DNA of 61,644 nt from a virus (lineage: Duplodnaviria > Caudoviricetes), in the IMG/VR virus record IMGVR_UViG_3300037424_000754, positions 1 to 61,644 of that record, one strand, 5' to 3'. Positions 35,163-61,644 of this stretch are shown one piece after another. Position 1 is the stretch's first letter, and each line of letters begins with the position of its first letter. Below the pieces are notes generated by a model. That model was not told where the DNA came from. It saw only the letters and a list, made by a program, of their open reading frames with translations, and made no database searches. The position numbers and the translations under genes were made by a program.

Positions 35163-35197
35163 ATTAAGCCGCTCCCGCCTCCCCAGGAGGGAGCGGC
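35163..35197 (-). terminator. Hairpin after capsid gene (weak terminator or processing stem)
   Basis: GCCGCTCCC...GGGAGCGGC then TTAATT. Confidence 0.45.
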
Positions 35198-35209: not shown

Positions 35210-36433
35210 TTAAGCCCCGAGGATGATCTGCCCGTTCCAGCCAGGCGCGTTGCACGCCTGGAAGTAGTAAGAAACCCAACGGGTCTCAAGAGCATCCGCG
35301 CCGCCGAGCCGCAGCATGTCCTGGCCGTCGCCGCGGAAGACGTGCGGCACCTCGTTCACGCTGCCCAGGGTCCAGGTGTTCTGCTGGAGCAGGTAGCACC
35401 GCAGGCCGGGGCAGCTTCGATCCGGGAAGATGTCCACCGGGCCCTTGTGCCCGTTGAGCGTGATGCCCTTGAACGAGATGGTGCCCATGCTCATCGAGAC
35501 GTACTGGACCTTGGCGCCCAGCGAATTGTCCAGGGCCTCATAGCTCGTGAAGTTCGTGATGCCGAGGTTAGTCTTCGCGCCTTCACGCGCGAGGAACTTG
35601 GTCCCACGGATCAGGGCCTCGTCGATCGGCTTATTGCTCTCGTCGCTCGACATACCAAACAGCCGGTTATCGAACGACCGATCCACGCCGTAGAAATTAT
35701 CACCAGAGGTCGGGGCCGTGGTAGGATTCCAGCCGTCCAGCCCGGTGATGTTGGCATTGTTATCGCCCTCCAGGAGCAGGAAGTCACCAGCCGCCCATGA
35801 GGTCGGGGTAGCGGCGGCTCCACTAAACCCGGACGCCGCCACGGTAATCACGCCAGTCCTGCGATTGATGTGAGTGACGTAGCCCTTGGCGGCCCGCGGA
35901 GAGGCGCCGCCGTCCGTAGCGTTGGCCTGGAGCACCTGATTGCGATTGAAGTGGACCACGCTCTCCGGGTCATCCAGGGTGATGACGCCAGAGGTGATAC
36001 CGCCGGACGCGATCTTGCCGATGGAGCCCGTTCCGGAACGGAACAGGGTAGAAGAAATGGTCTCCGTGAGAGTCCGCAGCGCGGAGTCGTTCTTCAGTTT
36101 CGCCAGGGAAAGGAACGCGGTGCTGTCCCCCTGGGTCGACTCCACAAGCTCATTGGTGATGGTCGCAACCTTGTACTTCGGCTTGCGAGTCATCATGAAG
36201 GAGGCGGACTCAGCGGCCTGCTGATTCGCCTGCGCAACCGAGAAGTCTGCCGACACGCCCTGTGAATCATTCCAGATGGTCGGCCACGGAACCACCTTGC
36301 CGCCGCAGCTTTCGTTCTTTGAGATCATCCCAAACCAGGGATTGTCATCGTATGAGAAATACTGGATGTTCTGCGGGCCGTACAGTTCCTTCAAAGCAGC
36401 GTTAGCCGCCGCCATGTCCAGATAGGCTGACAT
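35210..36433 (-). CDS. Major capsid protein
   Basis: 407 aa, AALKELY start, LFRSGTG, ITGLDGW, ..CNAPGWNG end; follows scaffold; strong codon bias. Confidence 0.75.
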   Translation of the reverse strand: MSAYLDMAAANAALKELYGPQNIQYFSYDDNPWFGMISKNESCGGKVVPWPTIWNDSQGVSADFSVAQANQQAAESASFMMTRKPKYKVATITNELVESTQGDSTAFLSLAKLKNDSALRTLTETISSTLFRSGTGSIGKIASGGITSGVITLDDPESVVHFNRNQVLQANATDGGASPRAAKGYVTHINRRTGVITVAASGFSGAAATPTSWAAGDFLLLEGDNNANITGLDGWNPTTAPTSGDNFYGVDRSFDNRLFGMSSDESNKPIDEALIRGTKFLAREGAKTNLGITNFTSYEALDNSLGAKVQYVSMSMGTISFKGITLNGHKGPVDIFPDRSCPGLRCYLLQQNTWTLGSVNEVPHVFRGDGQDMLRLGGADALETRWVSYYFQACNAPGWNGQIILGA

Positions 36434-36503: not shown

Positions 36504-37730
36504 TTACCCGCGCGTAGCTTCGCGCTCGCTCTTCACAGCCTTGAACTTGGCTATTGCGCGCGCCATGCGCTCCTCGTCGGTGAGAAACACCTTCTCACCA
36601 TTCACCGGAGCGCCGCCCTGCGTGACGATCTGACTCGTGATCGTGGGATGCTGCCCGAACGGGATTCGCTGGAACACGCCTCGGGCCGGCTGTGCTTCTT
36701 CTTCGGCTGGAGACGTGGGCTGGTTTTTTGCGGGGGCGCTAGGCGCCTTGGTGGGCGAGGGTGCAGCAGGTGTGATCGGCTGATACTTTGACTTGAAGTA
36801 ACTCGTCTCTAGCACAGCCTCTGACTTCTTGCGGTAATACTCTTCCAGTAGTTCTGCGGCGCGTTCGCGCGTTAGCAGTTGGCCCTTGGCCTGGCTCGTG
36901 TCCTTGCCCTGGGTTTCAAGCTCTGCGCGTGCGGTCTCTAGCGTTTGCTGATAGTGCTGGATGATTAGCTCTGGTACTTCGTGCTCGACCTCCAGGCGCG
37001 TGATGAGTTCGTACTTGTCCGGAGTCGCCTTCACGAATTCAACGGTCTGCTCCTTGAACTGCTCTAGCTCGCGACTGGTGCGGGCTTCCTCGGCCCTACG
37101 GGCCGCAGTCTCCGCTTTCGCGCGCTCTTCTGCATCCCGCGTATCGCGGGCCTGCATGTCCTTGCGAAGCTGCTCGACCTCGGCCGCGCGGGCCTCGCGC
37201 TCGGCTTGAATCTCCTGCTCGGGGAGCGGCTTCTTAGCGTTCAACATCTGGCGGGACGCACCTTCATAGGTGTGGCCCCCGATCTCCAACCATCTCAGCG
37301 GGTCCGCGCGCGCCGTTTCCATCCTCGTGCGCATCTGCGCGATCTCGGCCTGGGCGGCAGCGATCTTGGCCTCCGTCTCCTTCACGCGGGCCTCACGCTC
37401 CTGGGCCTGTCGGTTCAGGACGCGAGCGCGCTCCGTAAGCTGCCGCTCCCTGTGTGCCAGGTTGGCGAGCCGTTGAGTGATCTTTAGCTCTTCGGGGGAG
37501 GAAGCGGGCTCGGTCTGATCGGCGGCCTTGTCTCCGGTTCCCTTGGTCTCGGCCTTCTCCGGGGGCCTGGCGGCCCCTGCCGCGGGTTCCTTTGGCTTCT
37601 CCTCACCAGCATGTGCCCCCGTAAACTGCCCCGCCTGGCCGGCCACGGATCGCGTAAATCCGCCGAAAGCCGTAGGTGTGGTGACCTTCTCGGTCTTCTC
37701 TTCTCCGGCGGGGATCGCGGGCAGGGGCAA
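36504..37730 (-). CDS. Capsid scaffolding protein
   Basis: Charged coiled coil with disordered termini, immediately upstream of capsid; TTG start with GAGG. Confidence 0.65.
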   Translation of the reverse strand: MPLPAIPAGEEKTEKVTTPTAFGGFTRSVAGQAGQFTGAHAGEEKPKEPAAGAARPPEKAETKGTGDKAADQTEPASSPEELKITQRLANLAHRERQLTERARVLNRQAQEREARVKETEAKIAAAQAEIAQMRTRMETARADPLRWLEIGGHTYEGASRQMLNAKKPLPEQEIQAEREARAAEVEQLRKDMQARDTRDAEERAKAETAARRAEEARTSRELEQFKEQTVEFVKATPDKYELITRLEVEHEVPELIIQHYQQTLETARAELETQGKDTSQAKGQLLTRERAAELLEEYYRKKSEAVLETSYFKSKYQPITPAAPSPTKAPSAPAKNQPTSPAEEEAQPARGVFQRIPFGQHPTITSQIVTQGGAPVNGEKVFLTDEERMARAIAKFKAVKSEREATRG

Positions 37731-37757
37731 GGGCTAAGCCTCGTTAGGGTTTCCCCT

Positions 37758-37786
37758 ACCGTAACGCAAACCGCCGGTCGGTGCAA
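37758..37786 (-). promoter_or_regulatory. Candidate promoter of scaffold/capsid operon
   Basis: TTGCAC-17-TACGGT. Confidence 0.4.
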
Positions 37787-37836
37787 GACATGGCATGTAG
37801 CGTCACCAACGACGCAGCGCTCTGCCATCCCGGCCC

Positions 37837-38103
37837 CTATTCAGGGACCGTCCAGCGCTCGTGAGCGCAGTCGGGCGAGCAGAAGTGCTCCTGATTCCGC
37901 CCCACCAACACAGCGTCGCCTCCGCACGCCCTACACGCGGAGCGCCCGGTGCCGCCGCAGGCGTAGCATCGCTCGGAGAAGTAGACGAGCCGGCTCTTGC
38001 GGTCATACCTGGAGAAGTCCAGTTCGCCCCTGCCCTTACACTCCGGGCAGTTGAGCCTCGCCAGGTCCCACGGCGCTACCTCTACGTTGCCCGTGCGCTT
38101 CAT
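37837..38103 (-). CDS. DnaJ-type zinc-finger protein
   Basis: CPECKGRG, CYACGGTG, FCSPDC. Confidence 0.6.
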   Translation of the reverse strand: MKRTGNVEVAPWDLARLNCPECKGRGELDFSRYDRKSRLVYFSERCYACGGTGRSACRACGGDAVLVGRNQEHFCSPDCAHERWTVPE

Positions 38104-38483
38104 GGCTCATCCCGCCCCACGCTCGGATCCCATGTCTGGGGGCTGTGCTCATGGATGAACACGAGTCGCCCGTGCGCGTAGGCGCGCCAGATCATGTCAG
38201 CGGTCCCGGGGCTCCTCCCGTCCCAGACGGCGATTAGGGCATCAGCATAGCAGGCCATTTCCTCGTTGCGGAGAGGCCCGCCCCTCCGCCCCAGGCGGCT
38301 CCAGTCGGCGGGGAATCGCTTGACCGGGATGCCGCGTGAAGCGGCCCACCGCTCCCCTAGCCGGTCAACGCCGGGCGCGGTACCGCTCACAAGCTCTCTG
38401 ATCTCAAGGCCCGACCCGATGATGGCGGCATTCACCACGGCTGCCGAGCGGATGCTCCGTGAGCCAGCGACGATGACTTTCAT
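38100..38483 (-). CDS. SLOG-family (YspA/DUF2493-like) protein
   Basis: MKVIVAGSR, GTAPGVD, PADW..G..GG..RN..M, WDG.S.GT. Confidence 0.85.
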   Translation of the reverse strand: MKVIVAGSRSIRSAAVVNAAIIGSGLEIRELVSGTAPGVDRLGERWAASRGIPVKRFPADWSRLGRRGGPLRNEEMACYADALIAVWDGRSPGTADMIWRAYAHGRLVFIHEHSPQTWDPSVGRDEP

Positions 38484-38783
38484 TTTTATAGCCCCTTTCG
38501 TGTCCCCGGACACAGCGAACGGCTCCCCGTTAGGGAGCGTACTGAAGGTCCCTCATACTAAAGAGTGAATTTTACTACCATCGGGTGAACCCTGTCGGCA
38601 TGACCCCTGCGTGACTTTTTTACAGAATTTAGAGTGCCAAGCAATCACGTCAGGAAACCCTTGTGCCCGTAGCTAGTAACACCGACCAAAATCATACTAT
38701 GAGTAGAGTTCGTTTACACCCTCGATTTTTACCACTGCGTAACAGCCTATATTGCTGAGCTAAAATCGTTGGGGGACAACAGA

Positions 38784-38896
38784 GTGCCACAGCGCCGCTG
38801 CGTTACAAGCCCCTCTGGCGCGCAGCCCGAACCGATGGGAGAGGCGGGCACCCGTAGGGTGCCGCCCGATCTCTCCTTAAGGCGGCACTCTGCGGA
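38784..38896 (-). repeat. Dispersed element copy A (inverted relative to 57769..57882)
   Basis: Shared TCCGCAG.GTGCCGCCTTAAGG, GGCGGCAC.CTA.G.GTGCCCGCCT, TGT.ACGC.GCGGCGCT.TGGCAC. Confidence 0.8.
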
Positions 38897-38999
38897 ATGG
38901 GGTTTTTTGGCCAAAAAGTGACACGCACCTACAGTGACGAAATTCCGTAGAGTGCCAAGGCGTCTGGTAAATGCACCCGGAGAGGGCGCATAAAATGAG

Positions 39000-39397
39000 C
39001 TACGGATGGGTGCTTGGCGTCTCTTGGACGCGGAGATCCTCGGGCCACTCGGAGGGCTCAGCACCCTTCCGACCACGAAGCCCCACGGTTCCGCCGGCAG
39101 CGACGGGGCTGGATCCAAGCTGCTTAACAAACACGGGCACGCCCGCTGCGCGACACTGCTGAACGATGGACCTGATCCAGGCGAGGTCGCACGGGCGCGC
39201 CCTGGGGCCGCTCTCGCCGCCCACGATGACCCAGCCTACCCGCGGGTCTGGGCTGTCGAGCACATCCAGCCTTGCGTAGGTGTCGAGCCGCCCCGGGTAA
39301 GGGCCGACCCGCGTCAGATCGAGCGGCCCGATGAGCGGCTCGGCCGAGACGAAGCGGACCACGGCAGGTATCTCCAGGAGCCATGACAGGCGGTAGA
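39000..39397 (-). pseudogene. C-terminal fragment of DUF5131 (gp37/gp68-like) protein
   Basis: LLEIPAVVRFVSAEPL, WVIVGGESGPRARP, GVPVFVKQLG; N-terminal Cys part absent. Confidence 0.75.
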
Positions 39398-39676
39398 GTC
39401 GTTGGGTAATGTCTGCGCAAGCCCGCCCCAGGCCGCCTGGCAGCTACCATTGTCCACGATGAAGGCCAGGGAGAACACCTTGATCCCGGACTGCTGTTGG
39501 ATGGTGAGCAGGGTCTGGCTGTTCGTAAGCCCCATGTCGATATAGGGCGCGAAGGTGTGGCTTACGGTTCCCGTGGCACCCGTACATCTCGCGGCCAGGG
39601 CCCTGCACGCAAAACACAACGCCGCCGCGACGATGAGAAAGTAAGACACCAAGTAAACCTTCATCGTCTTAGTCAT
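39398..39676 (-). pseudogene. Truncated secreted GH18 chitinase-like gene
   Basis: Signal peptide, FAPYIDM, SGIKVFSLAFIV..CQAAWGG; breaks off before any DxDxE motif. Confidence 0.6.
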
Positions 39677-39690
39677 GATCGAGCCCAGCC

Positions 39691-40995
39691 CTATGGACAC
39701 AGCGAGCGAGTATCGACAACATAGCCCTGTATCGGCCCCGCGGAGTCACCCCACTTCGAGCCGAAAAAGACGCGCTTGCCGTCTTGGCTCGGAACAGCGT
39801 GCGGCGACGTACCAAGAGGCATGCGATGGTGGGCTAGCCGGTAATGCCGACCGTTTGTCCCGAACGCAACGATCTCGCCTACGGCGCTCCCTGTCGTGCT
39901 GTAAAGCCCGCCAATAGCCCAGCCAATTACGGCGCCAAGCCGCACGGACCCTGCATGATAAGAGCCTGCTCCAGTATCCCAGATCGCAGACTGACTTCCA
40001 TCTGACAATTTATACCTGACGCCGTTACCCGAGATTGCGTACTCAATGCCATCAGATCCGGTCGTCATGTCGTAGTGCCCCGCAGCGAATTGAGCGCGCC
40101 GCGTCAAATTCACCGCACCAGTAGTCTGGTTCCAGTCGAGAACCGCTGTCTCTGCGGAGCTACGCGATACGATGATGTACGTGCCTAGCGGACTAATGGA
40201 CACCCAGTCAAGCGAAGATATTCCTACGCTCGCGATAGTAATGTCAGCCGTTTTCTTGACGGCGCAACCAGGGGTGAGCGTGGTCATACACGCCGTCATG
40301 TCCACCACAAAGAAATACGGAGGCCCGGATGTGCCCTGCCCTACGCTAACTATGACCCATCTGCCATTCTCCGAGATGTTGCCTTCGGCCGGCCCAAAAC
40401 CAACCTGTACGCTGGACGCCAGACCCCCAGAGTAAACAGTTGTCTTAGCGTTTGTGCGAACATTCCAGAACACGATCGATCCGCTGTCGTCATCAACCTG
40501 TACTGCGGTGTCTGGCAGCTTAGGGTGCCAGCGCCGGTCAAATACGTCAGCCGCGAAACGCCCCTCTCCTATCGAGATAGGCTGGTAAGTGTCGCCATCC
40601 AAAAAGATGGGCGCGGCCCCAGGCTGATTGGTCATATCGATCTGAAGGATCGATCTACCCTGTGAGTCTGGCGTACTCCAGGCTGGAGCTTTTGGATAAA
40701 TGCTGTACGCCTCATCGCTCCATGTCTGGCCCGTGGATCCTATGGCGCTTCCAACGTCTCCGGTAACACGGATGATCTGTGTGCCAAAGGCCGGATCCGT
40801 TATGCTTTGCAAATATGCCGGCTTCGTGAGCGCTCCCTGCGCGTGCGTACCCGTGTCCGTAACCAAAGCATCGCAGTATGGCGTGACGGCCGGGGCCGAC
40901 GAAATGGGCGTGCATCTCGCGGCCAGGGCTCTAGATGCCAGGCCCAAGGCAATCACTGCGCTTACGGCAAGGGCAACCTTCATGATTCTGGTCAT
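39691..40995 (-). CDS. Secreted beta-propeller protein
   Basis: Signal peptide, DPAFGT.I.RVT, RLAHH, PHAVPSQDGKRVFFGS.W. Confidence 0.7.
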   Translation of the reverse strand: MTRIMKVALAVSAVIALGLASRALAARCTPISSAPAVTPYCDALVTDTGTHAQGALTKPAYLQSITDPAFGTQIIRVTGDVGSAIGSTGQTWSDEAYSIYPKAPAWSTPDSQGRSILQIDMTNQPGAAPIFLDGDTYQPISIGEGRFAADVFDRRWHPKLPDTAVQVDDDSGSIVFWNVRTNAKTTVYSGGLASSVQVGFGPAEGNISENGRWVIVSVGQGTSGPPYFFVVDMTACMTTLTPGCAVKKTADITIASVGISSLDWVSISPLGTYIIVSRSSAETAVLDWNQTTGAVNLTRRAQFAAGHYDMTTGSDGIEYAISGNGVRYKLSDGSQSAIWDTGAGSYHAGSVRLGAVIGWAIGGLYSTTGSAVGEIVAFGTNGRHYRLAHHRMPLGTSPHAVPSQDGKRVFFGSKWGDSAGPIQGYVVDTRSLCP

Positions 40996-41152
40996 GTCAT
41001 GCTCTCCTGTTGGCCGTGCAGGATGGTGCTTGCTCTAATGATGTAGTCCTGGGCATCGTTAAGCGTGACAACATACCCGGGGCCGCTGCATAGGGCATGC
41101 GAGAGGGTTGTCGCATAATTGGTCCCATTCAGGGTGATGACTGTTGGGCTTG

Positions 41153-41356
41153 TCAACGTAGGGGGCGCCGTGGTCGTCCCTGGTCGCGCCCGGAGAGGGC
41201 GGCCCTATCTCTCCGCCCCTGCTCCCGAACCGCCTCGCGGTAGGTGCGCCCCGTGCCGCACTCTGTCGCGGGCATCCACCACCCCTCGTCGTCCACGCTC
41301 CACCCCTGCGCCTCCAGGGCGGCCCTCTCCTCGGGGGTCGGGAGGTAGCGGCTCAT
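41153..41356 (-). CDS. Hypothetical protein
   Basis: ATGA coupling. Confidence 0.5.
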   Translation of the reverse strand: MSRYLPTPEERAALEAQGWSVDDEGWWMPATECGTGRTYREAVREQGRRDRAALSGRDQGRPRRPLR

Positions 41357-41562
41357 GCCGTGTACCCCCGCAGCGATCTCAGGGCAGCCATCATCGCGAT
41401 CACGTCACCCTCGGCCATCGCCCTCGCCGCCGCGTCCAGATCGGCGCGCATCATCGCCAGCGCGATGTCGCCAGTTCCGCCGGACAGTTCCATGTACACT
41501 GGCATTACCTCGTCCCGCACGCGGGTTATCTCGCGGGGTAGTTCTTCGCCAAGCGTTCTCAT
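41353..41562 (-). CDS. Small hypothetical protein (MRTLGEELPRE...)
   Basis: ATGA coupling, AGGAG RBS. Confidence 0.6.
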   Translation of the reverse strand: MRTLGEELPREITRVRDEVMPVYMELSGGTGDIALAMMRADLDAAARAMAEGDVIAMMAALRSLRGYTA

Positions 41563-41870
41563 CGCTTCTCCTTTTCCTCTAGGCCGAGGCGGGCCAGGGC
41601 GCGGCACACCGGGCACCAGGCGTGCTCAGGCAGGTACTCGGTTAGCACATCGGGGCAGGCAGGAACGATCTTCCCCTCTCGGTGGGCCCGCCAAACGAAC
41701 ATACACGGCAGGCGGTACCGCATCAGTCGTGCCTCCTTCTCCACCGCAAGCAGCGCGCGTAACTCCGCCGCCAGCGCCCTGTTCGTCTCCGGGTCTCGCT
41801 CCAGGAGCCCCGGCGCACCCGGGCGGAGCAGGTAGTCGGACAGCATCGGAGCGATTCTGGTCTTACCCAC
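41559..41870 (-). CDS. Cys-containing hypothetical protein
   Basis: Operon packing; CPVC. Confidence 0.5.
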   Translation of the reverse strand: MGKTRIAPMLSDYLLRPGAPGLLERDPETNRALAAELRALLAVEKEARLMRYRLPCMFVWRAHREGKIVPACPDVLTEYLPEHAWCPVCRALARLGLEEKEKR

Positions 41871-42477
41871 GGTCAACCTCCTCGTCCTGGGCGGCGCGGG
41901 CGCGGATCTGAGTGAGCATATCGATCGCCTCCTCATTGCCCATCGCCGTGAGCGTCACCAGACAGCGCGCCGTCTCCTTTAGCCTCGCCTCAGCCCCCCT
42001 CGCCCTCTCCTCGGCCGCCTCGGCGCGGCGCTCGGATACGCTGGTCCGTTCCAGCAGGGTCCCTAGGCGCTCTCGTGCAGCGGGGTACGGCTCGCCCTTT
42101 AGCCCGGCCGCATCCAGCGCCGCGACGAGGGGGTAAACGTGCTCGCTCCAATTCACGGTCTGGCACCCGATGATGCTGTTGCGTATTTCACTGATCTTCG
42201 CGAGTGCAGTCGCCAGCCGGTCGCGCTCGAAGCGGAGAGCGGAGACCTGATCCATGAGGCAGCGGCGACACGTGCAGGCGTCGGGGCCGATGGTGTCCGC
42301 GTCGCAGTTCCAGTCGGTCGCCTCGGGCTGCTCTCCGGCCGGCGCCGCCGGAGCCTTCGCGGCGCCCGGAGCGCAGTCCTCGCAGCACGGCGGGTGCATC
42401 CGACCATCAGGCCCCGCATGGCAGTGACAGCGACCCCCGCACCTCGTCGTGGCCGCCGGCGCCGCCGCGCTACCCAT
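41863..42477 (-). CDS. Cys-rich coiled-coil hypothetical protein
   Basis: CHCH..CCEDC, CTCRRC, NWSEHVYPLVAAL. Confidence 0.55.
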   Translation of the reverse strand: MGSAAAPAATTRCGGRCHCHAGPDGRMHPPCCEDCAPGAAKAPAAPAGEQPEATDWNCDADTIGPDACTCRRCLMDQVSALRFERDRLATALAKISEIRNSIIGCQTVNWSEHVYPLVAALDAAGLKGEPYPAARERLGTLLERTSVSERRAEAAEERARGAEARLKETARCLVTLTAMGNEEAIDMLTQIRARAAQDEEVDRG

Positions 42478-42703
42478 TGCCCACCACCGCGAACTCCTCG
42501 TAGGCGGCGAGCGCAGCGTATGCGGCCTTGCACCACGGATGCGGATCGCCACGCTTTACGCCGTCCGGATAGCCGGCGTCCGGATCGGTCTCGAACCACT
42601 GGTGATCCAGCATTTTGCACATATCCCTGAGTGCCTTAGCGAGGGAGGCACACTGTGTTTCGCTAGCCGTCAGTCGATCAGTCACGCTACCTTCGCTAGG
42701 CAT
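42470..42703 (-). CDS. Hypothetical protein
   Basis: GGAGG RBS before ATG 42703. Confidence 0.5.
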   Translation of the reverse strand: MPSEGSVTDRLTASETQCASLAKALRDMCKMLDHQWFETDPDAGYPDGVKRGDPHPWCKAAYAALAAYEEFAVVGNG

Positions 42704-42956
42704 TGGTCTTGCCTCCTCTCGCAATGTCTGGTAGCTCCGTCGGCATAGGGAAACCGTCACACCTACCGTCCGCCGGCCACAGCACGAGTGCCGTCCCAGC
42801 CATGCAACAGCCGGAGCGTGGAGCGCCCACCGTGCGCATCGCCCACTGCACGTCGAGTGCATAGCACGCCGACAGCGCCAGCCTCCCGCACCGGAGGCAG
42901 TAGCGGCCAGCGACGACGACGGGCTGCGGGGGCGGCTTACGTTCACGTCTGGTCAC
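42696..42956 (-). CDS. Cys-rich hypothetical protein
   Basis: AGGAG RBS, GTGA overlap. Confidence 0.45.
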   Translation of the reverse strand: MTRRERKPPPQPVVVAGRYCLRCGRLALSACYALDVQWAMRTVGAPRSGCCMAGTALVLWPADGRCDGFPMPTELPDIARGGKTNA

Positions 42957-43636
42957 GGCTTGGTCTCCTTTGTCTCTGGCTCCCCATCCCACCAGCAATT
43001 GCAGTGCGTCCCGTCCTCTCTCTTGGGGCAGGGCGACTCGTCCTCACCAGAGTAACCACACGAGCAGCACACGCCACTGCTTACCTGTTTCGCCTGGCAC
43101 TCGTACGGTTGGCGCACTCCCGGCGCAGGAAAGGTTTTGCTGCAAGTCGCCATGCGGCAGGTGGCGTACCCGGTGACGACATTGGCGTCGGCGGCACTTC
43201 CGCAGTCCGGGCACTTGGCGAGAAGAACGCGAAGACGGCGAACCTCAATCACCAGGGCGGGCACGGATTCAGCCATCCGATCGAGAGACGCGAACGGATC
43301 ATTAGCCCCCGAGATCCACTCGATGGCCCGGTGCTCTACCTCATTCAGCGATTCCTCGTTCAACGTCTCCACTGACACCTTCATCACACGCAGCCTCTCC
43401 GCGGTGCTCTTCGTGCTAGCCTCGGCGGCCGCCGCTCTCATCTGCTCCGCCTCGACCGTCCCACACCCAGCCAGTTTCGCTGGCCCTCCGCACTCGGGGC
43501 ACCGCAGAGGCCCCACCGCCGGGACCTCCGCGTCGAGGATGGCGCGGAAGCGCATGGCGTACGAGCGCACAGCAAAATCGCCATACCTTTCCATTTCCTC
43601 TGCCAGCTTCCTGATCTTCTCGATCGCGTCGTTCAT
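42953..43636 (-). CDS. Multi-zinc-finger hypothetical protein
   Basis: CPECGG, CPDCG, CCSCG. Confidence 0.55.
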   Translation of the reverse strand: MNDAIEKIRKLAEEMERYGDFAVRSYAMRFRAILDAEVPAVGPLRCPECGGPAKLAGCGTVEAEQMRAAAAEASTKSTAERLRVMKVSVETLNEESLNEVEHRAIEWISGANDPFASLDRMAESVPALVIEVRRLRVLLAKCPDCGSAADANVVTGYATCRMATCSKTFPAPGVRQPYECQAKQVSSGVCCSCGYSGEDESPCPKREDGTHCNCWWDGEPETKETKP

Positions 43637-43857
43637 GGCGGTCCTTTCCATACTGGGAGGGGGTGGTCCTTCTTGGCCCTCCTGAGCGCCTCCACTGCCT
43701 GTTCGCCGGCCTCGATAGCCTCCTTTATATTGGAGTCAGGGACCCATGGGCGATCGTGAACCCTGAATGCCAAGACAGACGTAACGGCGGCAGACCACAG
43801 ATCGCTTTCCTTTATAAGCCACAAATACACAAACCGGCTCTCCGTCTCCCTTTCCAC
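43633..43857 (-). CDS. Hypothetical protein
   Basis: Operon packing. Confidence 0.45.
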   Translation of the reverse strand: MERETESRFVYLWLIKESDLWSAAVTSVLAFRVHDRPWVPDSNIKEAIEAGEQAVEALRRAKKDHPLPVWKGPP

Positions 43858-43869
43858 GCTAACGCCTTT

Positions 43870-44079
43870 CTAGACCAAGCCCATCTTCCTGGCCCACCAG
43901 CCCTTAACCATGAGCCTGCCCGTGTTCGCCTTCATCGAGTAAACCTCAGAGTCATCATGGATCACAGACTTCGGGACCCAGACTTCCTCCTCGCCCTCTA
44001 GCATACAAAGCAGAGCCTTGTCTGTTTCCTTGACCGCCTCGGCGTCGGCGTTCCACGTATCGTCCCAGGCGTCGTTCAT
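43870..44079 (-). CDS. Small phage protein (ETDKALL..EEVWVPKSVI)
   Basis: Motif style common in phage hypothetical proteins; ATGA coupling. Confidence 0.6.
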   Translation of the reverse strand: MNDAWDDTWNADAEAVKETDKALLCMLEGEEEVWVPKSVIHDDSEVYSMKANTGRLMVKGWWARKMGLV

Positions 44080-44411
44080 CCCTTGGTCTCCTTCCCCTTG
44101 GGGTTGTACCGTCTGAACGCCTCGTCCTTTGCTTTTGCCTCCTCGTATTTCTGCAACAGGAACTCCCTGGTTTGAACAGCCTTCATGTAAAGCTCCGTCG
44201 GCTGCGGGCGCACCGGCCTAAGGTCGTCGCTCCATTGATGATGCGCGCAAGTGCGCCTGTCACTACACGCACAGCCGCCCCAATGCTCGCCTTCAACGTC
44301 AAGCCTCGGCATGGAATGGACGGAGCCGCAGAGCGCACACAGGAACCGCGAGCAGCCATCCGACTCTAGATGGTGCGCCTCGCACTTGGAGCACTTCGGC
44401 AGCCTTTCCAT
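44076..44411 (-). CDS. Cys/His-rich hypothetical protein
   Basis: CSKC..HH, CALC. Confidence 0.5.
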   Translation of the reverse strand: MERLPKCSKCEAHHLESDGCSRFLCALCGSVHSMPRLDVEGEHWGGCACSDRRTCAHHQWSDDLRPVRPQPTELYMKAVQTREFLLQKYEEAKAKDEAFRRYNPKGKETKG

Positions 44412-44427
44412 TATCGGTTACGCCTTT

Positions 44428-44634
44428 CTAAGTGGCGAATCTGACCGCGTCTCCGTACGATTCGTGCCAGTGCTGCGGCGCCTTGACATAGGTTATGCTC
44501 CACGCACCACACTTAGAGCACTTCCAGCGAAGCGCATGATCTTCGCCCCTAAGCCACAATGTCGAGCTAAAGACGCCTGGTTGAGTCGGCAGGTAAAACA
44601 TCGGCTCGTGCTTGCACTCGGGCATAGCTGTCAC
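44428..44634 (-). CDS. Zinc-ribbon mini-protein
   Basis: CKH...CSKCG. Confidence 0.5.
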   Translation of the reverse strand: MTAMPECKHEPMFYLPTQPGVFSSTLWLRGEDHALRWKCSKCGAWSITYVKAPQHWHESYGDAVRFAT

Positions 44635-44637
44635 CCC

Positions 44638-45057
44638 CTAGAATGGAATGTCATCCGGCGCGGGAGCCGCGGGAGCCGCGCTCCCTGTCTCCGGTTCCTT
44701 CTCGTCTGCGGCGGCAGGCACTCGATCGCTCTTACCGCCCAGGAACTTCACCTGCTCTGCGACCACCTTGGTCCTGTATTTCTCCTGACCGGATTGCTTG
44801 TCCGTCCACTTGTCGGTCTTAAGGCGCCCCTCAACATAGGCTTGCCGGCCCTTGGCTAGGTACTCGCCGCAAAGCTCAGCCAGTTTGGACCACGCCTCGA
44901 TGTAAACCCATTCCGTTTCCTCCTTCTTCTCGCCGTCCTTGGTCTGCCATCGTCGCGTGGTGGCGAGAGAGAAGGAACAGATGGCGGTTCCCGTTTGCGT
45001 GTACTTGACTTCCGGATCTTTGCCTAGGTTACCAATTAGAATCACCTTGTTAATCAT
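44638..45057 (-). CDS. ssb: Single-stranded DNA-binding protein
   Basis: NKVILIGNLGKDPE, YVEGRL, C-terminal DDIPF. Confidence 0.97.
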   Translation of the reverse strand: MINKVILIGNLGKDPEVKYTQTGTAICSFSLATTRRWQTKDGEKKEETEWVYIEAWSKLAELCGEYLAKGRQAYVEGRLKTDKWTDKQSGQEKYRTKVVAEQVKFLGGKSDRVPAAADEKEPETGSAAPAAPAPDDIPF

Positions 45058-45391
45058 CGTCCCTGCGCTCCGTCATGGGCACATGGCCCACGCACCACCA
45101 TGCTCCGTAGATTCGGAAGTGAGGCCCGTACGTACAATACGGTACGGTACACTTCCTGGGCTTCCTCTGCCTGCCTAAACCCGCCCTGCCAAGCGACGTC
45201 AATATGGACATGGCGGCCGAGTCCGGCATGAGGCGCCTGCCTGCCTCTATCTCCTCTATGTCATCCTCCTTCAAACCCGCGAAGTATGCCATACCGGACA
45301 GGGAATGTCCCAGGCTTTCGCGGATCATTCTCCAGACCTCGCCGTCTCTCTCGTACGGAGGCTTACTCTTCAGCGTCGATATCCTTGTCAT
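45050..45391 (-). CDS. XRE-like HTH protein with C-terminal Cys/His motif
   Basis: IRESLGHSLSGMA..AGL...IEEIEAGR. Confidence 0.5.
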   Translation of the reverse strand: MTRISTLKSKPPYERDGEVWRMIRESLGHSLSGMAYFAGLKEDDIEEIEAGRRLMPDSAAMSILTSLGRAGLGRQRKPRKCTVPYCTYGPHFRIYGAWWCVGHVPMTERRDDD

Positions 45392-45728
45392 GGAACAGGT
45401 CGGCCTCCTCAAGCTCTGAAGCGATATCTTCAAACGGCAACCCGTCGTCATTCCAGCTAGCGATTGAAAACTCGTTGGAAGCTGAAGCAATGCCAACCCA
45501 TTTCCTCACCCCATCTGGCATCTCAATGCGACTGCTGTCCGGCCCTAGACTGAAAGTATACACATCCCCTTGGCTAGGCCACCAAGAGCCTTTGCCCGTC
45601 TCCCTGCGGTACACTTCACACGCCACACCCAGGCAGCAATAGGTGTCCTGAGTCTTGAGCGCATACCGCCCCTGCTTGAATTCACCGCTCCTTAATGCCT
45701 TGATCCACTTCCTGGCGTTCTCGTTCAT
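45363..45728 (-). CDS. Phage hypothetical protein
   Basis: KWIKALRSGEFKQG..CCLGVACE..ND...F.DIA motif. Confidence 0.65.
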   Translation of the reverse strand: MNENARKWIKALRSGEFKQGRYALKTQDTYCCLGVACEVYRRETGKGSWWPSQGDVYTFSLGPDSSRIEMPDGVRKWVGIASASNEFSIASWNDDGLPFEDIASELEEADLFHDKDIDAEE

Positions 45729-46017
45729 GGCCTTATCTATCCTCGTCTTGTTAATAGCCTTTCTCTGGCCTCCAAACGAAACATCTGGCGAATCGTATAG
45801 ACTTCCCAACCAATCATCGACAACGGAGCGCAGTTGCTCACCGTGATCAGTCGATCCCTCCTTTCCCTGTATGGAATAATTAGCGCCGATGGCTTCGCGA
45901 GATCCCATTCAGCCAAGGCACGCCTGAAATTCATGATGAAGCAGTCGGCATCGTGTCGTATGCCTAAGCAAATGTCGTGGGCCTCACGCGATATGCCGTT
46001 CGAGAGTCGCCTGTAAG

Positions 46018-46254
46018 CTACCTTCCGCCGAATGGGCATGGTCCACCGTGTGCGTATCGCCCGCAGATAGGGCAATGAATCGGTTTTTCTTGTGCTGGGG
46101 CTGGCTCAAACCCAGGACACCCGCAGCCCGGCGCATTACAGCCTGAGCTTGGTCTGAGCAAATACGGAGCAGTAGGCTTAAATCCGTGGAGACGGTAGGG
46201 GTGTGAACACCTACCACAATCTGCAACATCGCTTATGGTGGACTGCGCAGCCAT
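46018..46254 (-). CDS. Cys/His-rich mini-protein
   Basis: CGRCSH..H, CGC, CPICG; start uncertain. Confidence 0.45.
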   Translation of the reverse strand: MAAQSTISDVADCGRCSHPYRLHGFKPTAPYLLRPSSGCNAPGCGCPGFEPAPAQEKPIHCPICGRYAHGGPCPFGGR

Positions 46255-46318
46255 AGGGTCGCCAGATCGGGGCCATTTTACGCTGACCCCACCCACATTT
46301 AACCAATGCAACTGTTAA

Positions 46319-46450
46319 CTATTTGTGAACAGAAGGCTCCCCTAACTTTTTGGTTAGCCAACCGAATCCCAACACAACCGCTGCGATTACTCCGACCCAC
46401 GCGAAAACCAGCATGAGCATGACGAACAGCATCGCGAAATAGTCTGCCAT
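46319..46450 (-). CDS. Single-TM 43-aa protein (not in ORF track)
   Basis: MADYFAMLFVMLMLVFAWVGVIAAVVLGFGW, directly after a promoter. Confidence 0.5.
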   Translation of the reverse strand: MADYFAMLFVMLMLVFAWVGVIAAVVLGFGWLTKKLGEPSVHK

Positions 46451-46475
46451 GGCCTTTGCCCGCCCTTCTGCGCGC

Positions 46476-46505
46476 AGTATAGGGCAGGCTATACGCAAGA
46501 GTCAA
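46476..46505 (-). promoter_or_regulatory. Sigma70-like promoter
   Basis: TTGACT-18-TATACT. Confidence 0.55.
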
Positions 46506-46572
46506 GTCCGGTGCGGCTGCCCACGGACCAGCAGGCTCACCGCTCCTCGGGGACCGGGGCTCCCGTTGAACC

Positions 46573-46833
46573 CTAGGTCTTGCCGATGAGGCGCGCGCGG
46601 CATGCCGGGCAGGTGATCCATCCGCTCACGGGCTCGTGTACGCTATAGTAATCCTGAGACCGTCCAAGGTGCGCGTAGACCGTATCCGTGAACATCTTGC
46701 CCTGGTCTGCCTTGAACACGTCCTTACACCGGCAGCACGCCACGATACTCGGCTCCTTTCGACGGAGCATCACACTCCTGAAGGTCAACAGTTCACTGTC
46801 CTGAAGATGCTTGATCTTGGTAGCCACGGCCAT
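46573..46833 (-). CDS. Zinc-finger hypothetical protein
   Basis: CCRC...CPAC, GGAGG RBS. Confidence 0.55.
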   Translation of the reverse strand: MAVATKIKHLQDSELLTFRSVMLRRKEPSIVACCRCKDVFKADQGKMFTDTVYAHLGRSQDYYSVHEPVSGWITCPACRARLIGKT

Positions 46834-46848
46834 CCCCTCCCCAGGGGC

Positions 46849-47538
46849 CTAGACCCACCCCTTGTTCTGGTTGATCGCCTTTTTCAGATACGGGTCCACG
46901 TCAGGCTGGCGCAAGAGCCATCTTAGGTAGTCTGCCGGGACATCTCGGATCGGCACTCCCTTGTGCTTCCCGTTGGGCATCTTGGATGGTAGCCGGGCCT
47001 TTTCCGAAACGACCCAGAGATCATGCCAAACCACAACGGCGGTCAATTTGGCAAGCACCCGCTCCAGCAGGATCAGTGTATTGCGGACATCACACACAGC
47101 GTCATGCGCTCCATGCAGGCGCCATTTAGCGTGTTCACGGTCCAGATGGTACATCATGGCCCCTAGGCCATGGGAATCGGCCTCGGGCCACAGCATCCTG
47201 GAGAGGGCGAGCGTGCAGATACGCCTGACCCTTGGCTCACCTAGCACCCTCCAGTCAAAGTCAATGTTATGCCCTATGATGTAATCAGTGCCCGGCGCTT
47301 CGTTGAGAATACGAAAGCCTGCGCTCGGAGGGCGCCCCTCTAGCTCCTCGTCGAGGATGTGGTGTGTCGCAAGAGCACCAAGCTCGATCGGCTTGCTCGG
47401 TTTCAAGAGGGTCACCTTGTAGTCGCCATCCCAGCCTGAAGTCACGTCACCCGGAGCCTCAAACACCCGCCAGGCAACCTGTATCGGCTCGGGGCTCTTG
47501 ACCCCGGTCGTTTCCGTGTCAATCACAATGGCACTCAT
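46849..47538 (-). CDS. DEDDh 3'-5' exonuclease (ExoX-like) with C-terminal DUF3820-like domain
   Basis: IDTETTG, GHNIDFD, AHDA..DV, MPNGKHKG..I.DVP.DYL.W. Confidence 0.88.
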   Translation of the reverse strand: MSAIVIDTETTGVKSPEPIQVAWRVFEAPGDVTSGWDGDYKVTLLKPSKPIELGALATHHILDEELEGRPPSAGFRILNEAPGTDYIIGHNIDFDWRVLGEPRVRRICTLALSRMLWPEADSHGLGAMMYHLDREHAKWRLHGAHDAVCDVRNTLILLERVLAKLTAVVVWHDLWVVSEKARLPSKMPNGKHKGVPIRDVPADYLRWLLRQPDVDPYLKKAINQNKGWV

Positions 47539-48077
47539 TCCGAAAACTCCCCAGATACGGATACGCTCTCCCCTTCTAAAGGGAGCACGCATTCAGATGA
47601 TCCGCTGCAATCGCCGCCCCAGCCCAGAAACTCACCGTCTATGAACGGGACCCCGTGTAGCTCGATCTCGTGCCCGCTCTCGATGTCGAACTCGCACGAT
47701 GAGTTACTGCAATGCCGCACATTGCTGCTCACATCCAGGACGATCATGGTAACCGAGCCAGGCCCATCCGCCAGGATGCAGACATTCGTGCGCCCCTCCT
47801 CGGCCGGAGCGCAGGCTGCGGGCTCTACCGCCGGCCCGTCGGGTTCGGGCGGCGACACGGGCGGAGGGGGAAGATGCGGCACGGGCGCGGGGGCTGGCGC
47901 TGGTGGTGATATGGGTCTCGGATCGGGGGTTGGAGGTGGCATAGGCGCTGGCGGTAGGGCTGGCTCGTCGGGCGTAGGCTCGGGCGCTACCGGAGCATCG
48001 GGCTCCGGGGCAGGTTCAGGTTCGCCGCCACCACAGGCAAGCGCCGAGACCATCAAGAATACAGACAGGCATCTCAT
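47535..48077 (-). CDS. Lipoprotein with Pro-rich linker and InlB B-repeat-like domain
   Basis: Lipobox ALAC; F.GWGGDCSG...C. Confidence 0.7.
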   Translation of the reverse strand: MRCLSVFLMVSALACGGGEPEPAPEPDAPVAPEPTPDEPALPPAPMPPPTPDPRPISPPAPAPAPVPHLPPPPVSPPEPDGPAVEPAACAPAEEGRTNVCILADGPGSVTMIVLDVSSNVRHCSNSSCEFDIESGHEIELHGVPFIDGEFLGWGGDCSGSSECVLPLEGESVSVSGEFSE

Positions 48078-48094
48078 CTCACTGAATTTCCTAA

Positions 48095-48180
48095 TGGTTG
48101 AGGAGGGAATCGAACCCTCTGGACCCGCAGGGGATAGCAGATTTACAGTCTGTCCCGGCGCCGTACCGGACTACTCAACC
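48095..48180 (-). tRNA. tRNA-Tyr(GTA), no encoded CCA
   Basis: Acceptor GGTTGAG/CTCAACC plus discriminator A, anticodon loop CTGTAAA, long variable arm, T-arm GAGGG-TTCGATT-CCCTC. Confidence 0.85.
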
Positions 48181-48199
48181 CTTCTGGCGACCGTCCTCC

Positions 48200-48411
48200 A
48201 AAATGCGGCCCACTGGCCCTGGCGCCAGCGAACCTGCCTTCGAGGGGCGATCAATAGCCCAGGGCCCCAGCCCTAGCAAGCGGCCCGCCAGCCTTGGCAC
48301 TGGCGGGCCCGCACCGCGAGGCAATCGAATACTTCCTGCCAAGGTGCCTCGCTTTACTCTTGGTCGGCTTCGCGCGAACGAAGCCGAACACCCTGCACCC
48401 GGCGACCCAAC
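48200..48411 (-). ncRNA. Candidate structured ncRNA with kissing loops
   Basis: Four strong hairpins; loops CCTTGGCA and TGCCAAGG are complementary. Confidence 0.6.
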
Positions 48412-48417
48412 ATGGCG

Positions 48418-48446
48418 AACATGGCACGCGCCGGTCATCCTGTCAA
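48418..48446 (-). promoter_or_regulatory. Candidate promoter for ncRNA/tRNA
   Basis: TTGACA-17-CATGTT overlapping the portal stop codon. Confidence 0.45.
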
Positions 48447-50440
48447 GCCGTTTGAGGCAGCAAAGTGGAAACAGGCGCTTTCGCCGGCCTGGCCTGGGGC
48501 GTCCCTCCCTGGCCCTGCGGCTGCCCGCTCGCCTGGATAGACTGAGCTATCTGGGCCTGCCGCACCGCCTCGGCCTCTGCCGCCTGCTTCCCCTTCTCCT
48601 CTAGGGCGAACACTCCCAACATGAAGCGCCGCAGCTTTTCGAGGCTTCGCTCATCTGCCGCCTGTAGTTTAGCGACGTTGTAGTATTGGCGTCCCAATTC
48701 GTTCGCTAGGGCCAGGTCGTCGAACGGCTCGGGAGCATAGAAGAATCCATCCTCGTCGAGCATCCGCTCGATCTGCTCAGTCAGGAAATCCTCCGCAGAG
48801 GTAGCCAGGCTCTCCGCCATCTCCAGGTCTGGCATGTCCATCAGGCGACGGCCGACGCGCGGAGAGATCCATCCCGCCTGAACCCATTCCTCAATCGTAG
48901 CCATGCGGCCCGCCGGCTCGTTAGGTAGGGATGAGACCGGGAAGCACTGCATGATGTAGGAGTCTTCCTTCAGGTTAACGTCGTTGAAGTCAATCTCCTT
49001 CGTCCTGGTCCCCCTCATTGGCGCGATGACCTTATACTTCCCTCCAATGTCCTTGACGGTCTCGATCGAGAGCCTGGCGAGGTCCAGGAATAGGCGTTCG
49101 TAAGCCTGGCCTATCGTCATGAAGCGGTCAGTTTGTAGGTCGTTGTACTCCCTGAGTGCCTTACCGCTATTCAGGCCCGCCGGCTTCTGGCCCATGCTCG
49201 CCATTTGCGAAACGCCGGCCTGCTCGAAAGCGTGTTGCCAGATGCTGTACAGGTGAGAGAACACCTCCGGCTGCACTAGCTGCGGCGTGGCAAACGACGG
49301 CGGCTGAGTACCGGCGTACTCCACCACGGAGCCGATCTGGTTCGTCATATGAGACTTCACGATTCGTGAGCCCATCTGCAAGAAAACGCGGAGAGTCCCG
49401 CCCTTCCAGAACGACTGCTGAATCGTCCTAAGAATCGTGTTGATCTCTAGCTGGTTGTTCTGAAGCTGCTCCGCGAGCCCTTGACCCCAGAAACCGTAAG
49501 GTCGAGGAGACCACTGGAACCGAGCGAACGGGAACGAGTCACGCTTCCACTCGCGCGAGTAGACGACGCATCCCTCAATCGTTAGGCAATGCAGTCCATC
49601 CCCCGCATCTGGACCGCTGGGCAAGTGCCATGACTCGCGCAATTCCACTGTGTCGGCCAGGTACTGATCGGCCTGGTCTGGGTTCGCCAACGGGGCGTCA
49701 CGGATGGCGTCAAGCACCTTGTTGCGATGCCCATCTTTTTCGTCCCGGAGCCATGAGGCTGCCGTCTCCAGAAGAACCGCGCGATCTACGATCGTAACCC
49801 GATGCAGACTCCGGGGGTGACCATAAAAGCCGTCGAGGTCGTCTACGTGTAATTCAGCCGCCATCACACGTTCAAACTTCACTCTGCGGTTGTAAGCGCA
49901 AACATGGATGACGCCGTCGCCCCAGATACCACCGTCACGGAAAGCGAGAGGGCCAAGGGCATATGCGTCGTTCTCGTAAAACACGCCCTCCACGAACTTG
50001 GTTAGGCTCTTGGCCCGGCGCTGCATCTTGTAGTCGCCGCCGGAGGTCTGGAACAGGGGGCGCGGCTTGTTCTTGGCGATCCGGGCGGTAACGGTGTCCA
50101 GGGACGCCTGAACACAGTTCCAGGTGATCCGATCGTGCAACCATGGCTGGATGGCGGTCGGAGTCTGAATCTGGGCGCCCAGCCGTCCGGTTAGCGCCAT
50201 GTTGCCGTACAGGCGCGCGCCGATCACAAGCTGTAGACGCCTACTCTCCTGCCGCTGCTTTATGAATTCTAGAACGTGAGTAACGGCGCTCGCGAGATCA
50301 TCGTGCTTCTCGGTCCACCATCTAGCGTTAGCGCGCTTGCCACCACGGTCCCGGGGAGGCTCCCCGTTCCGGCTCATCTTTGTGTAGTCGATGGTCTGCA
50401 CAGGCTTGCCCCCTGGGAACCAAGTCCCAGGGGCAAGCAT
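48443..50440 (-). CDS. Portal protein
   Basis: 665 aa; WN.VQ...D....I...KPRP, FWGQGLAE.L...Q..IN, SG.AL, Gln/Ala tail; podoviral portal pattern. Confidence 0.75.
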   Translation of the reverse strand: MLAPGTWFPGGKPVQTIDYTKMSRNGEPPRDRGGKRANARWWTEKHDDLASAVTHVLEFIKQRQESRRLQLVIGARLYGNMALTGRLGAQIQTPTAIQPWLHDRITWNCVQASLDTVTARIAKNKPRPLFQTSGGDYKMQRRAKSLTKFVEGVFYENDAYALGPLAFRDGGIWGDGVIHVCAYNRRVKFERVMAAELHVDDLDGFYGHPRSLHRVTIVDRAVLLETAASWLRDEKDGHRNKVLDAIRDAPLANPDQADQYLADTVELRESWHLPSGPDAGDGLHCLTIEGCVVYSREWKRDSFPFARFQWSPRPYGFWGQGLAEQLQNNQLEINTILRTIQQSFWKGGTLRVFLQMGSRIVKSHMTNQIGSVVEYAGTQPPSFATPQLVQPEVFSHLYSIWQHAFEQAGVSQMASMGQKPAGLNSGKALREYNDLQTDRFMTIGQAYERLFLDLARLSIETVKDIGGKYKVIAPMRGTRTKEIDFNDVNLKEDSYIMQCFPVSSLPNEPAGRMATIEEWVQAGWISPRVGRRLMDMPDLEMAESLATSAEDFLTEQIERMLDEDGFFYAPEPFDDLALANELGRQYYNVAKLQAADERSLEKLRRFMLGVFALEEKGKQAAEAEAVRQAQIAQSIQASGQPQGQGGTPQARPAKAPVSTLLPQTA

Positions 50441-57671: not shown

Positions 57672-57768
57672 CTAGTCCTTTTGTGGCAAACGCGCCAGGG
57701 TGTCTTGTTACGCTGCGATTTTAAGCATTCAATTACAACCGGCCGACCGAACGACTCAAACGGGTGAA

Positions 57769-57882
57769 TCCGCAGCGTGCCGCCTTAAGGGACGGACTGG
57801 CGGCACTCTAAGAGTGCCCGCCTTGTCCCTGTATACGTGCGCTGCGTTACAGGGCCTCTGTTACGCTGCGGCGCTCTGGCAC
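57769..57882 (+). repeat. Dispersed element copy B, downstream of primase-helicase
   Basis: Matches reverse complement of 38784..38896. Confidence 0.8.
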
Positions 57883-60283: not shown

Positions 60284-60565
60284 ATGACAAGCGAAAGTGG
60301 AGGCCCCCGCCGGCCGGCTCACAGGCGAACGATATCAGACTTCCGGGCCGATGAGCGTATGCAGGCGGCGAAAAGAATAGGGCCTCGAATCCGCGCCCTG
60401 CGCGAGAAGAACGGCATTTCACTAACCGCCCTAGCTCAGGCGGCCGGTAGGGACTCGGCGGCCCTAAGCCGTATAGAGATGGGCCGAGCATGGGTCATAC
60501 GGTTTTACGATCTGATACGGCTGGCTGATTCACTGAAGGTGGACGTGGGGGATCTGTTCAAATGA
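60284..60565 (+). CDS. XRE-family HTH regulator
   Basis: IG.RIRALREKNGISL..LA..AG....LSRIE.G...LA..L.V...DLF. Confidence 0.85.
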   Translation: MTSESGGPRRPAHRRTISDFRADERMQAAKRIGPRIRALREKNGISLTALAQAAGRDSAALSRIEMGRAWVIRFYDLIRLADSLKVDVGDLFK

Positions 60566-61251: not shown

Positions 61252-61264
61252 GCAGGAGTGAGCT

Positions 61265-61480
61265 ATGAGCGCAACCAAGCGAACGAAAGCGATAGCAGAC
61301 TGGCACGAGGCGACCGAACGAGCAGAGGAGGCATGGGAACGCGCTCGCATGGCTCTAGAAAAAACATGGAATGAGATGAAGCGAGCCGTGTTCGCGGAGA
61401 TCCGGGCGGAAGCGATTGCACGGGAAGTGGAGGGATCCGTGGCACAGGCAGCGGCGCCCGAGGAGCCGGACCATGAGTGA
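61265..61480 (+). CDS. Small helical hypothetical protein
   Basis: AGGAG RBS; overlaps YqaJ start. Confidence 0.6.
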   Translation: MSATKRTKAIADWHEATERAEEAWERARMALEKTWNEMKRAVFAEIRAEAIAREVEGSVAQAAAPEEPDHE

Positions 61481-61644
61481 TCTGGGCCACCCGGATCAAG
61501 AGGCGGCAGAGCACAGGGCTCTCCTGGAGGAGAAAAAGCTCGGCACCATAGGAGGAACCGAAGCAAGCATCATCGCCCTGGAGCACGCCGGAGTAAAGCC
61601 CAAGTTCGGCCGCACGGCGTTTGGCGTGTGGAGTCAGATGATGG
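61473..61644 (+). CDS. 5' part of the YqaJ-family exonuclease (MSDLGHPDQE...)
   Basis: ATG at 61473 after GGAG, in frame with position 1. Confidence 0.8.
   Translation, partial: MSDLGHPDQEAAEHRALLEEKKLGTIGGTEASIIALEHAGVKPKFGRTAFGVWSQMM
61518..61644. repeat. Terminal direct repeat, copy 2
   Basis: Identical to 1-127. Confidence 0.95.

Follow-up and report, generated by a model that had tools for sequence, protein, structure and literature searches.

The 262-nt non-coding gap between the portal-like gene and the only tRNA gene of an uncultured phage (positions 48181-48442) contains a statistically unusual cluster of hairpins, with a genuine candidate for a kissing-loop contact, in a core domain of 121 nt (48276-48396). 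The cluster is an orphan, which belongs to no known family, is not tied to portals and is located at a mosaic junction before an acquired tRNA. The reading that we tentatively prefer, at somewhat less than an even chance, is that of a cis-acting hairpin cluster on the minus strand, which marks a transcript boundary and forms the leader of the tRNA precursor.

The stretch of DNA analysed (hereafter the window) is classified in its record as a complete 61,644-bp phage genome with terminal repeats, and a 127-nt exact direct repeat at its two ends (1-127 and 61518-61644) agrees with this classification. From 7.6 kb onward nearly all genes lie on the minus strand and are closely packed, with a median intergenic gap of a few bases, and the gap studied here (in a region of 66% G+C) is among the largest of the genome. 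Its upstream neighbour in the direction of transcription is an ORF of 665 aa (48443-50440, minus strand), which matches the SU10_portal family PF23899 (E 2.3e-10, 40 bits, for a cut-off of 30) and the portal family phrog_1216 (E 4.7e-6); the genes for the terminase large subunit (phrog_5653) and for a primase/helicase are found further upstream. On the other side, a tRNA-Tyr with a GTA anticodon (48095-48180, minus strand, by ARAGORN; Rfam tRNA-clan match at 48096-48180) starts 1 nt past the gap, which is therefore directly upstream of it and on the same strand. The next gene is a 180-aa ORF (47535-48077, minus strand), for which neither a Pfam or PHROG family nor a relative among viral contigs was found, and whose translation suggests a lipoprotein, given an N-terminus of that type and a linker rich in proline; this ORF is followed by an RNase_T-type exonuclease gene (PF00929, phrog_192). 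Both the size of the gap, in such a compact genome, and the common minus-strand orientation of the gap, the adjoining genes and the tRNA count in favour of a transcript boundary.

A first-pass annotation of this DNA had described four stems and a complement between two loops in the gap, and all of them proved to be exact, both on reading the sequence and in a repeat search. Three of the stems make up the core. Hairpin A (48361-48390, minus strand) has nine perfect pairs (48364-48372/48379-48387) and an inner U-G pair confined to the minus strand; hairpin B (48316-48352, minus strand) has eight perfect pairs (48316-48323/48345-48352) closing a 21-nt loop; and hairpin C (48282-48309, minus strand) has ten perfect pairs (48282-48291/48300-48309) closing an 8-nt loop. 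These G+C-rich hairpins are placed 56-161 nt past the portal stop codon. The loop of hairpin C (48292-48299) is CCTTGGCA as listed, and the loop of hairpin B ends in its exact reverse complement, TGCCAAGG (48337-48344). Read on the minus strand, the hairpin C loop is UGCCAAGG (48299-48292) and the complementary segment of hairpin B, CCUUGGCA (48344-48337), corresponds to the first eight nucleotides of the loop, which abut the 5' arm with no gap. All 27 pairs of stems A-C and all eight kissing pairs are of the Watson-Crick type, and the duplex between the two loops, taken by itself, has an energy of -12.6 kcal/mol.

In order to compare these features with chance, perfect hairpins (stems of at least 8 bp, loops of 3-25 nt) were enumerated in the window and in 300 dinucleotide-preserving shuffles of the whole genome. 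The window contains 40 such hairpins, against 23.4 +/- 4.6 in the shuffles, and three of them are packed into 48282-48387, while three non-overlapping hairpins within 110 nt were observed in none of the 300 shuffles. Complementarity between the loops of neighbouring hairpins was equally absent from the shuffles when at least 8 nt were considered (0/300), and rare for at least 7 nt (4/300) and at least 6 nt (10/300); genome-wide, a single pair of neighbouring hairpins has complementary loops, even with the 6-nt threshold. The folding energies of the core agree with this, the minimum free energy (MFE) being -65.7 kcal/mol on the minus strand (z = -3.70) and -58.4 kcal/mol on the plus strand (z = -3.85), with no shuffle as good among 300 in either case, while the z-scores of the whole gap go from -2.2 to -2.45. 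The repeat search, the shuffles and the folding scores thus agree that the hairpins and their complementary loops are real and beyond chance, as first proposed. The 8-mer CCTTGGCA is not over-represented in the window (4 matches, 2.44 expected), and the idea of antisense targets of the loop was dropped for this reason. Outside the cluster, the longest perfect hairpin (32578-32622, with a 12-bp stem and a 21-nt loop) is inside ORF 32051-32785 (minus strand), and two overlapping 8-bp hairpins come after it, at 32631-32682.

The predicted ensemble is less uniform than the list of stems. Hairpins A and C are formed with high pair probability on both strands (0.98 on the minus and 0.96 on the plus strand for A; 0.98 and 0.90 for C), whereas hairpin B, in its context, reaches only 0.52 on the minus strand, against 0.98 on the plus strand, which counts against a minus-strand boundary element. 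The helix that had been proposed to close the domain (48276-48280/48392-48396, 5 bp, one of them G-U) does form in the MFE structure of the isolated core, but its probability within a 321-nt context is 0.02 on the minus and 0.07 on the plus strand. Similarly, the fourth stem (48215-48222/48259-48266), although exact over its 8 bp, has an ensemble pair probability of 0.00 on the minus strand and 0.07 on the plus strand. This tRNA-proximal side is occupied on the minus strand by two hairpins, a small one (48260-48275) and one that is long, irregular and rich in G-U pairs (48186-48259), the latter stopping 5 nt short of the tRNA. On the portal side of the core, the MFE structure has a weak irregular hairpin (48399-48434, minus strand), in which an 8-nt direct repeat occurs in tandem (48409-48416 and 48418-48425) and which folds no better than shuffled sequences (z = +0.12 on the minus strand).

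The preference for the minus strand that had been deduced from the closing helix persists in a mild form only. It comes from G-U pairs, which are found on the minus strand alone and make up four of the 39 pairs of the minus-strand model (the inner closing pairs of hairpins A and C, and one pair each in the closing helix and in a helper helix of 3 bp); the core itself is equally stable on the plus strand. The tRNA-proximal segment (48181-48275) is more informative, with z = -2.10 on the minus strand (a fold equalled by 6 of 300 shuffles) and -0.58 on the plus strand (82 of 300). Since the fold of this segment is specific to the minus strand, and given the G-U pairs and the minus-strand neighbours, an RNA transcribed from the minus strand is the natural reading of the gap, in which we infer both the strand and the transcription itself. 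The core tells nothing about the strand, because its stems and kiss are purely Watson-Crick, and it could equally be an element that works at the DNA level, either as hairpins in single-stranded DNA or as a protein-binding site, in which case it might prime replication, act as an origin or provide a recombination joint where the gene block described below begins. The nearly identical z-scores of the two strands suit this explanation, as do the break of synteny at the gap, the nearby exonuclease gene and the replication-type genes of the block; moreover, clusters of hairpins serve as single-strand priming signals in phage G4 and in plasmids. We nevertheless consider it quite unlikely, given that the region is G+C-rich, with no A+T-rich stretch and no iterons, that the GC skew has no turn near 48 kb, that no second copy of the element was found anywhere in the genome, the far end of the block included, and that nothing similar was found among 72,556 plasmid records.

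Coding capacity does not account for the gap. An 87-aa ORF that fills it (48175-48438, minus strand) extends 6 nt into the tRNA-Tyr, has no Pfam or PHROG match and has a G+C content by codon position (0.69/0.69/0.60) unlike that of the genes (0.63/0.44/0.73 for the portal and 0.63/0.43/0.68 for the exonuclease), and was rejected as a gene on these grounds. Concerning expression signals, the TTGACA promoter that had been placed over the portal stop exists as a hexamer (48441-48446, minus strand, across the TGA) and could be a -35 box, but its best partner 17 nt downstream, CATGTT (48423-48418), agrees with a -10 box at three of six positions, and a promoter scan of 47400-49000 gave no site. A terminator scan of the same region gave none either, and none of hairpins A-C is followed by a U-run, which counts against a boundary element. 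In the whole genome, however, the sigma-70 promoter and U-tract terminator sites are at the level of chance (15, 14 and 14 found, against 12.6, 12.8 and 12.6 expected), so their absence from the gap decides nothing. Single perfect hairpins also follow other genes of this phage (for example 35168-35197, just past the capsid-like ORF), which counts in favour of a boundary element.

The first-pass annotation could not place the RNA in a known family, and the comparison with Rfam 15 bears this out, given that nothing in the gap reaches a gathering score. With a threshold of E<=10 over 47900-48700, the sole match in the gap was Bp2_287, dismissed as noise with 11.7 bits against a cut-off of 70. For the self-cleaving ribozymes (hammerhead, twister, twister-sister, pistol, hatchet and HDV-like) there was no Rfam match in the gap, nor was the CUGA motif found on either of its strands when read by eye. 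The same scan found a full-length type II hammerhead ribozyme (RF02276) at 6175-6241 on the plus strand (45 bits, with a gathering score of 37), and so the method works on this genome; this ribozyme has both the CGAAAC and the CUGAnGA cores and begins at the last base of ORF 5048-6175 (plus strand). As judged by these models, the gap holds no recognisable ribozyme, riboswitch, pRNA, ROOL, GOLLD or tRNA-like RNA. A tRNA remnant was rejected, as ARAGORN and the Rfam tRNA clan give only the tRNA-Tyr; the resemblance of 48318-48329 to the T-arm of this tRNA (11 of 12 positions) is at chance level, with an estimated 0.4 such matches expected per 601-nt region. A leader-trailer pairing across the tRNA (48220-48236 with 48017-48033; 17 nt, 82%) was likewise set aside, some 0.6 being expected by chance by our estimate. 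No family of known relatives was found for the element, although a published catalogue (PMC10690425) that comprises 10,006 candidates for structured RNAs in viruses might list it in its supplements.

The first-pass annotation had called any link to DNA packaging speculative and had proposed a search for homologues downstream of related portals. Such a link is not supported by the relatives of the portal, which were collected from four loci in viral contigs (IMG/VR) and six JGI metagenome loci (two of these six being the same contigs again), all with 48% identity or less. No tRNA is present at any of the seven loci that have downstream sequence, none of them has the gap, and in all five relatives with ORFs listed the next ORF is at most 61 nt from the portal stop; a covariance model built from the core as a single sequence (R1) had no match in these loci. 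Consistently, no tRNA was found in three records, namely a complete 39-kb relative (G001) and two fragments, loci L007 and L010 being left out. In G001 and in a second relative (L002), tblastx against the window gives the order terminase, portal and then, directly, the homologues of the window ORFs 36504-37730 and 35210-36433, which by position are scaffold- and capsid-like. Hence, in our phage, the gap opens a block of ~10.7 kb (37731-48442, minus strand) that is absent from these relatives and that comprises the gap, the tRNA-Tyr, the 180-aa ORF, the RNase_T exonuclease and about a dozen small ORFs; a counterpart with at least 40 bits was not found in the complete genome of G001. Compared at the sequence level with these two relatives, the block interrupts the string of structural genes in this phage only. 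The position of the gap at a break of synteny removes the comparative support for a link with the portal or with packaging, and the direct contact of portal and scaffold/capsid-like homologues in the relatives speaks for a boundary element.

The same break of synteny would also fit a cluster with no selected function, a by-product of the mosaic junction that was left, for example, by template switching or by a recent rearrangement in a G+C-rich spacer before an acquired tRNA. In none of the collections searched was the element found outside this genome, its position is exactly at the rearrangement boundary, its mismatch-free stems fit a recent origin and the whole gap has only modest z-scores. 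This explanation is doubtful in our view, because 262 nt of useless DNA would seldom persist in a phage genome this compact, the three-hairpin cluster and the loop match were each absent from all 300 shuffles, and a single template-switch event does not produce three independent stems.

The uniqueness of the element was observed in every collection that we searched. Model R1 matched only itself in 67 sources totalling 451 kb, and in 151 genomes sampled from a single bacterial phylum its scores did not exceed 28.5 bits, this sample being centred on the genome of a chance 22-nt match; that match, the only one given by a pattern scan of genome contigs, lies in a Reyranella MAG and was judged to be chance, as it lies inside a 163-aa ORF and only a hairpin is common to both. 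Exact and degenerate DNA patterns of the element had no match among the viral contigs of IMG/VR in any of four scans, and blastn against the GenBank phages matched only 60 nt of the tRNA (in Bacillus phages, with 80% identity). The relatives of the exonuclease, which are found in phages of proteobacteria, were followed at 58 loci (52% identity or less): none has an upstream tRNA and 57 have no tRNA at all, the only one nearby being a tRNA-Val (L064), located downstream and on the other strand. One sequencing run, of DNA and probably the source, contains the stretch, while no RNA run is among those listed; across the gap the contigs of this DNA run gave only the source contig, with no variants. 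As no homologue was found, there is no covariation to draw upon, and this counts against the boundary element as well. Regarding the phage itself, its capsid-like ORF (407 aa, 35210-36433, minus strand) has no tblastn match in 50,697 GenBank phage records and its portal has a single match there, with 25% identity, which places it in a lineage without cultured relatives.

Taking these results together, the hypothesis that we tentatively favour, a transcript boundary and pre-tRNA leader, would work as follows. The gap would be transcribed on the minus strand, as a spacer between the terminase-portal genes and the tRNA-Tyr; hairpins A, B and C would fold into a compact domain, after which the G-U-rich hairpin would precede the tRNA. 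Read-through could then be halted or delayed by the cluster, or the portal mRNA protected by it at the 3' end, and the RNA of the gap would constitute the 5' leader of the pre-tRNA, to be removed by RNase P. The 8-nt pairing between loops B and C might lock the two hairpins together, in a pseudoknot-like manner, making the domain more compact. A reason for such an element is given by genes of different kinds on one strand that need separate transcripts, or by a tRNA that needs a leader. Besides the strand and the transcription, the boundary function and the formation of the loop-loop helix are the parts of this hypothesis that we infer, and a boundary role by itself leaves the 8-nt match between the loops unexplained.

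The kissing loops are a candidate for either a pseudoknot or a dimerisation contact, and the geometry bears on the choice. On the minus strand the kissing segment of hairpin B abuts its 5' arm, and the kiss would thus stack on stem B; by geometric reasoning, a straight stack of B, kiss and C (~27 bp) would not be bridgeable by the 6-nt linker between B and C, which means that the fold would be bent if the pairing is intramolecular, or that the pairing would take place between molecules. The latter would be a property of a different kind of RNA, a discrete and stable small non-coding RNA, which RNase P would cut out of the tRNA precursor or which would start at the TTGACA hexamer, and whose complementary loops would pair within the molecule (as a tertiary lock) or between molecules (as dimers or rings). 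Several observations agree with it: the perfect 8-nt loop complement that no shuffle reproduced and its stable duplex, the compact and well-folded core, the short B-C linker (which would favour pairing between molecules), and the perfect -35 hexamer with a half-matching -10 box at the start of the gap. We hold it to be unlikely all the same, since Rfam links it neither to pRNA, ROOL and GOLLD nor to another family, and since it has no homologue with which conservation could be displayed, no site in the promoter scan, and perfect strand-symmetric stems that carry no RNA-specific signature in the core.

The location directly upstream of a phage tRNA also agrees with a small non-coding RNA, by analogy with the ROOL and GOLLD RNAs, structured non-coding RNAs which according to PMC12286853 are encoded by phages and prophages, in many cases close to tRNA islands, and form homo-oligomers. 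The present element is likewise encoded in a phage beside a tRNA gene, but it is unrelated to them by Rfam, and its gap of 262 nt and core of 121 nt are far below the size of GOLLD, many members of which exceed 800 nt (PMC12286853). The comparison with the phi29 pRNA (RF00044), which the first-pass annotation had drawn partly from the adjoining portal gene, rests on a phage RNA with two mutually complementary loops that pair hand in hand between molecules; here an 8-nt loop complement is present, which may pair within or between molecules. In contrast, the gap has no RF00044 match either at the gathering score or at E<=10, the relatives of the portal lack the element, and this phage has a terminase large subunit of the phrog_5653 family and the 127-nt direct terminal repeats. 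The packaging set-up of phi29 differs from the terminase/direct-terminal-repeat type. It is very improbable, in our estimation, that the 121-nt core is a self-assembling RNA in which loop C, kept by the 6-nt linker from its own hairpin B, pairs with hairpin B of a second molecule to give dimers or closed rings, as a miniature, unrelated counterpart of the phi29 pRNA or of the ROOL/GOLLD cages, made together with the only tRNA of the phage.

Other known systems resemble the element in part. In phage T4, the tRNA cluster includes species 1 and 2, stable structured RNAs of unknown function that are co-transcribed with the tRNAs and released by tRNA processing; the element would likewise be a structured RNA beside a phage tRNA. 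Intrinsic terminators and protective stem-loops at 3' ends share with the cluster the G+C-rich perfect hairpins after a stop codon at a module boundary, but our hairpins have no U-run, and three hairpins with complementary loops exceed what a terminator needs. As for the junction riboswitches (purine and lysine classes), they also have hairpins that emanate from a junction and are held by loop-loop pairs, but the element has no Rfam match to them, its closing helix is nearly absent from the ensemble, and it is placed upstream of a tRNA instead of an mRNA, which leaves nothing for a riboswitch to control.

Two further repeated features were observed elsewhere in the genome. An element of ~110 nt occurs twice, in opposite orientations (38790-38910 on the plus and 57755-57875 on the minus strand), with 84% mean column identity. 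Both copies have the same perfect 8-bp hairpin stem, preceded by a near-copy of its complementary arm, so that the arms might pair in alternative ways; on the plus strand, the first copy has a T-run after it and a promoter-like site before it (38739-38766). This repeated element could represent a small RNA, or else a regulatory site. Additionally, GGC-rich repeats with spacings of 9, 12 and 15 nt are found at 60924-61242, inside ORF 60505-61566 (minus strand), where they would encode a repetitive protein segment, rich in Pro/Ala or in Gly depending on the frame.

The synteny adds one new point to what had been noted before, namely that the gap is the upstream edge of a ~10.7-kb block. Should the cluster be no more than a boundary element, it would illustrate how a block of genes that interrupts the structural operon of an uncultured phage is kept insulated, which would help annotation but be otherwise ordinary. 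At present the element is a single orphan sequence, and its worth is that of a well-defined candidate rather than of a finding. If the two loops do pair in nature, then a very small natural RNA, encoded beside a phage tRNA, would fold or assemble by means of an 8-bp kiss. The self-assembling RNAs already described from such a setting, whose function is unknown, are large, and one of 121 nt would lend itself to study.
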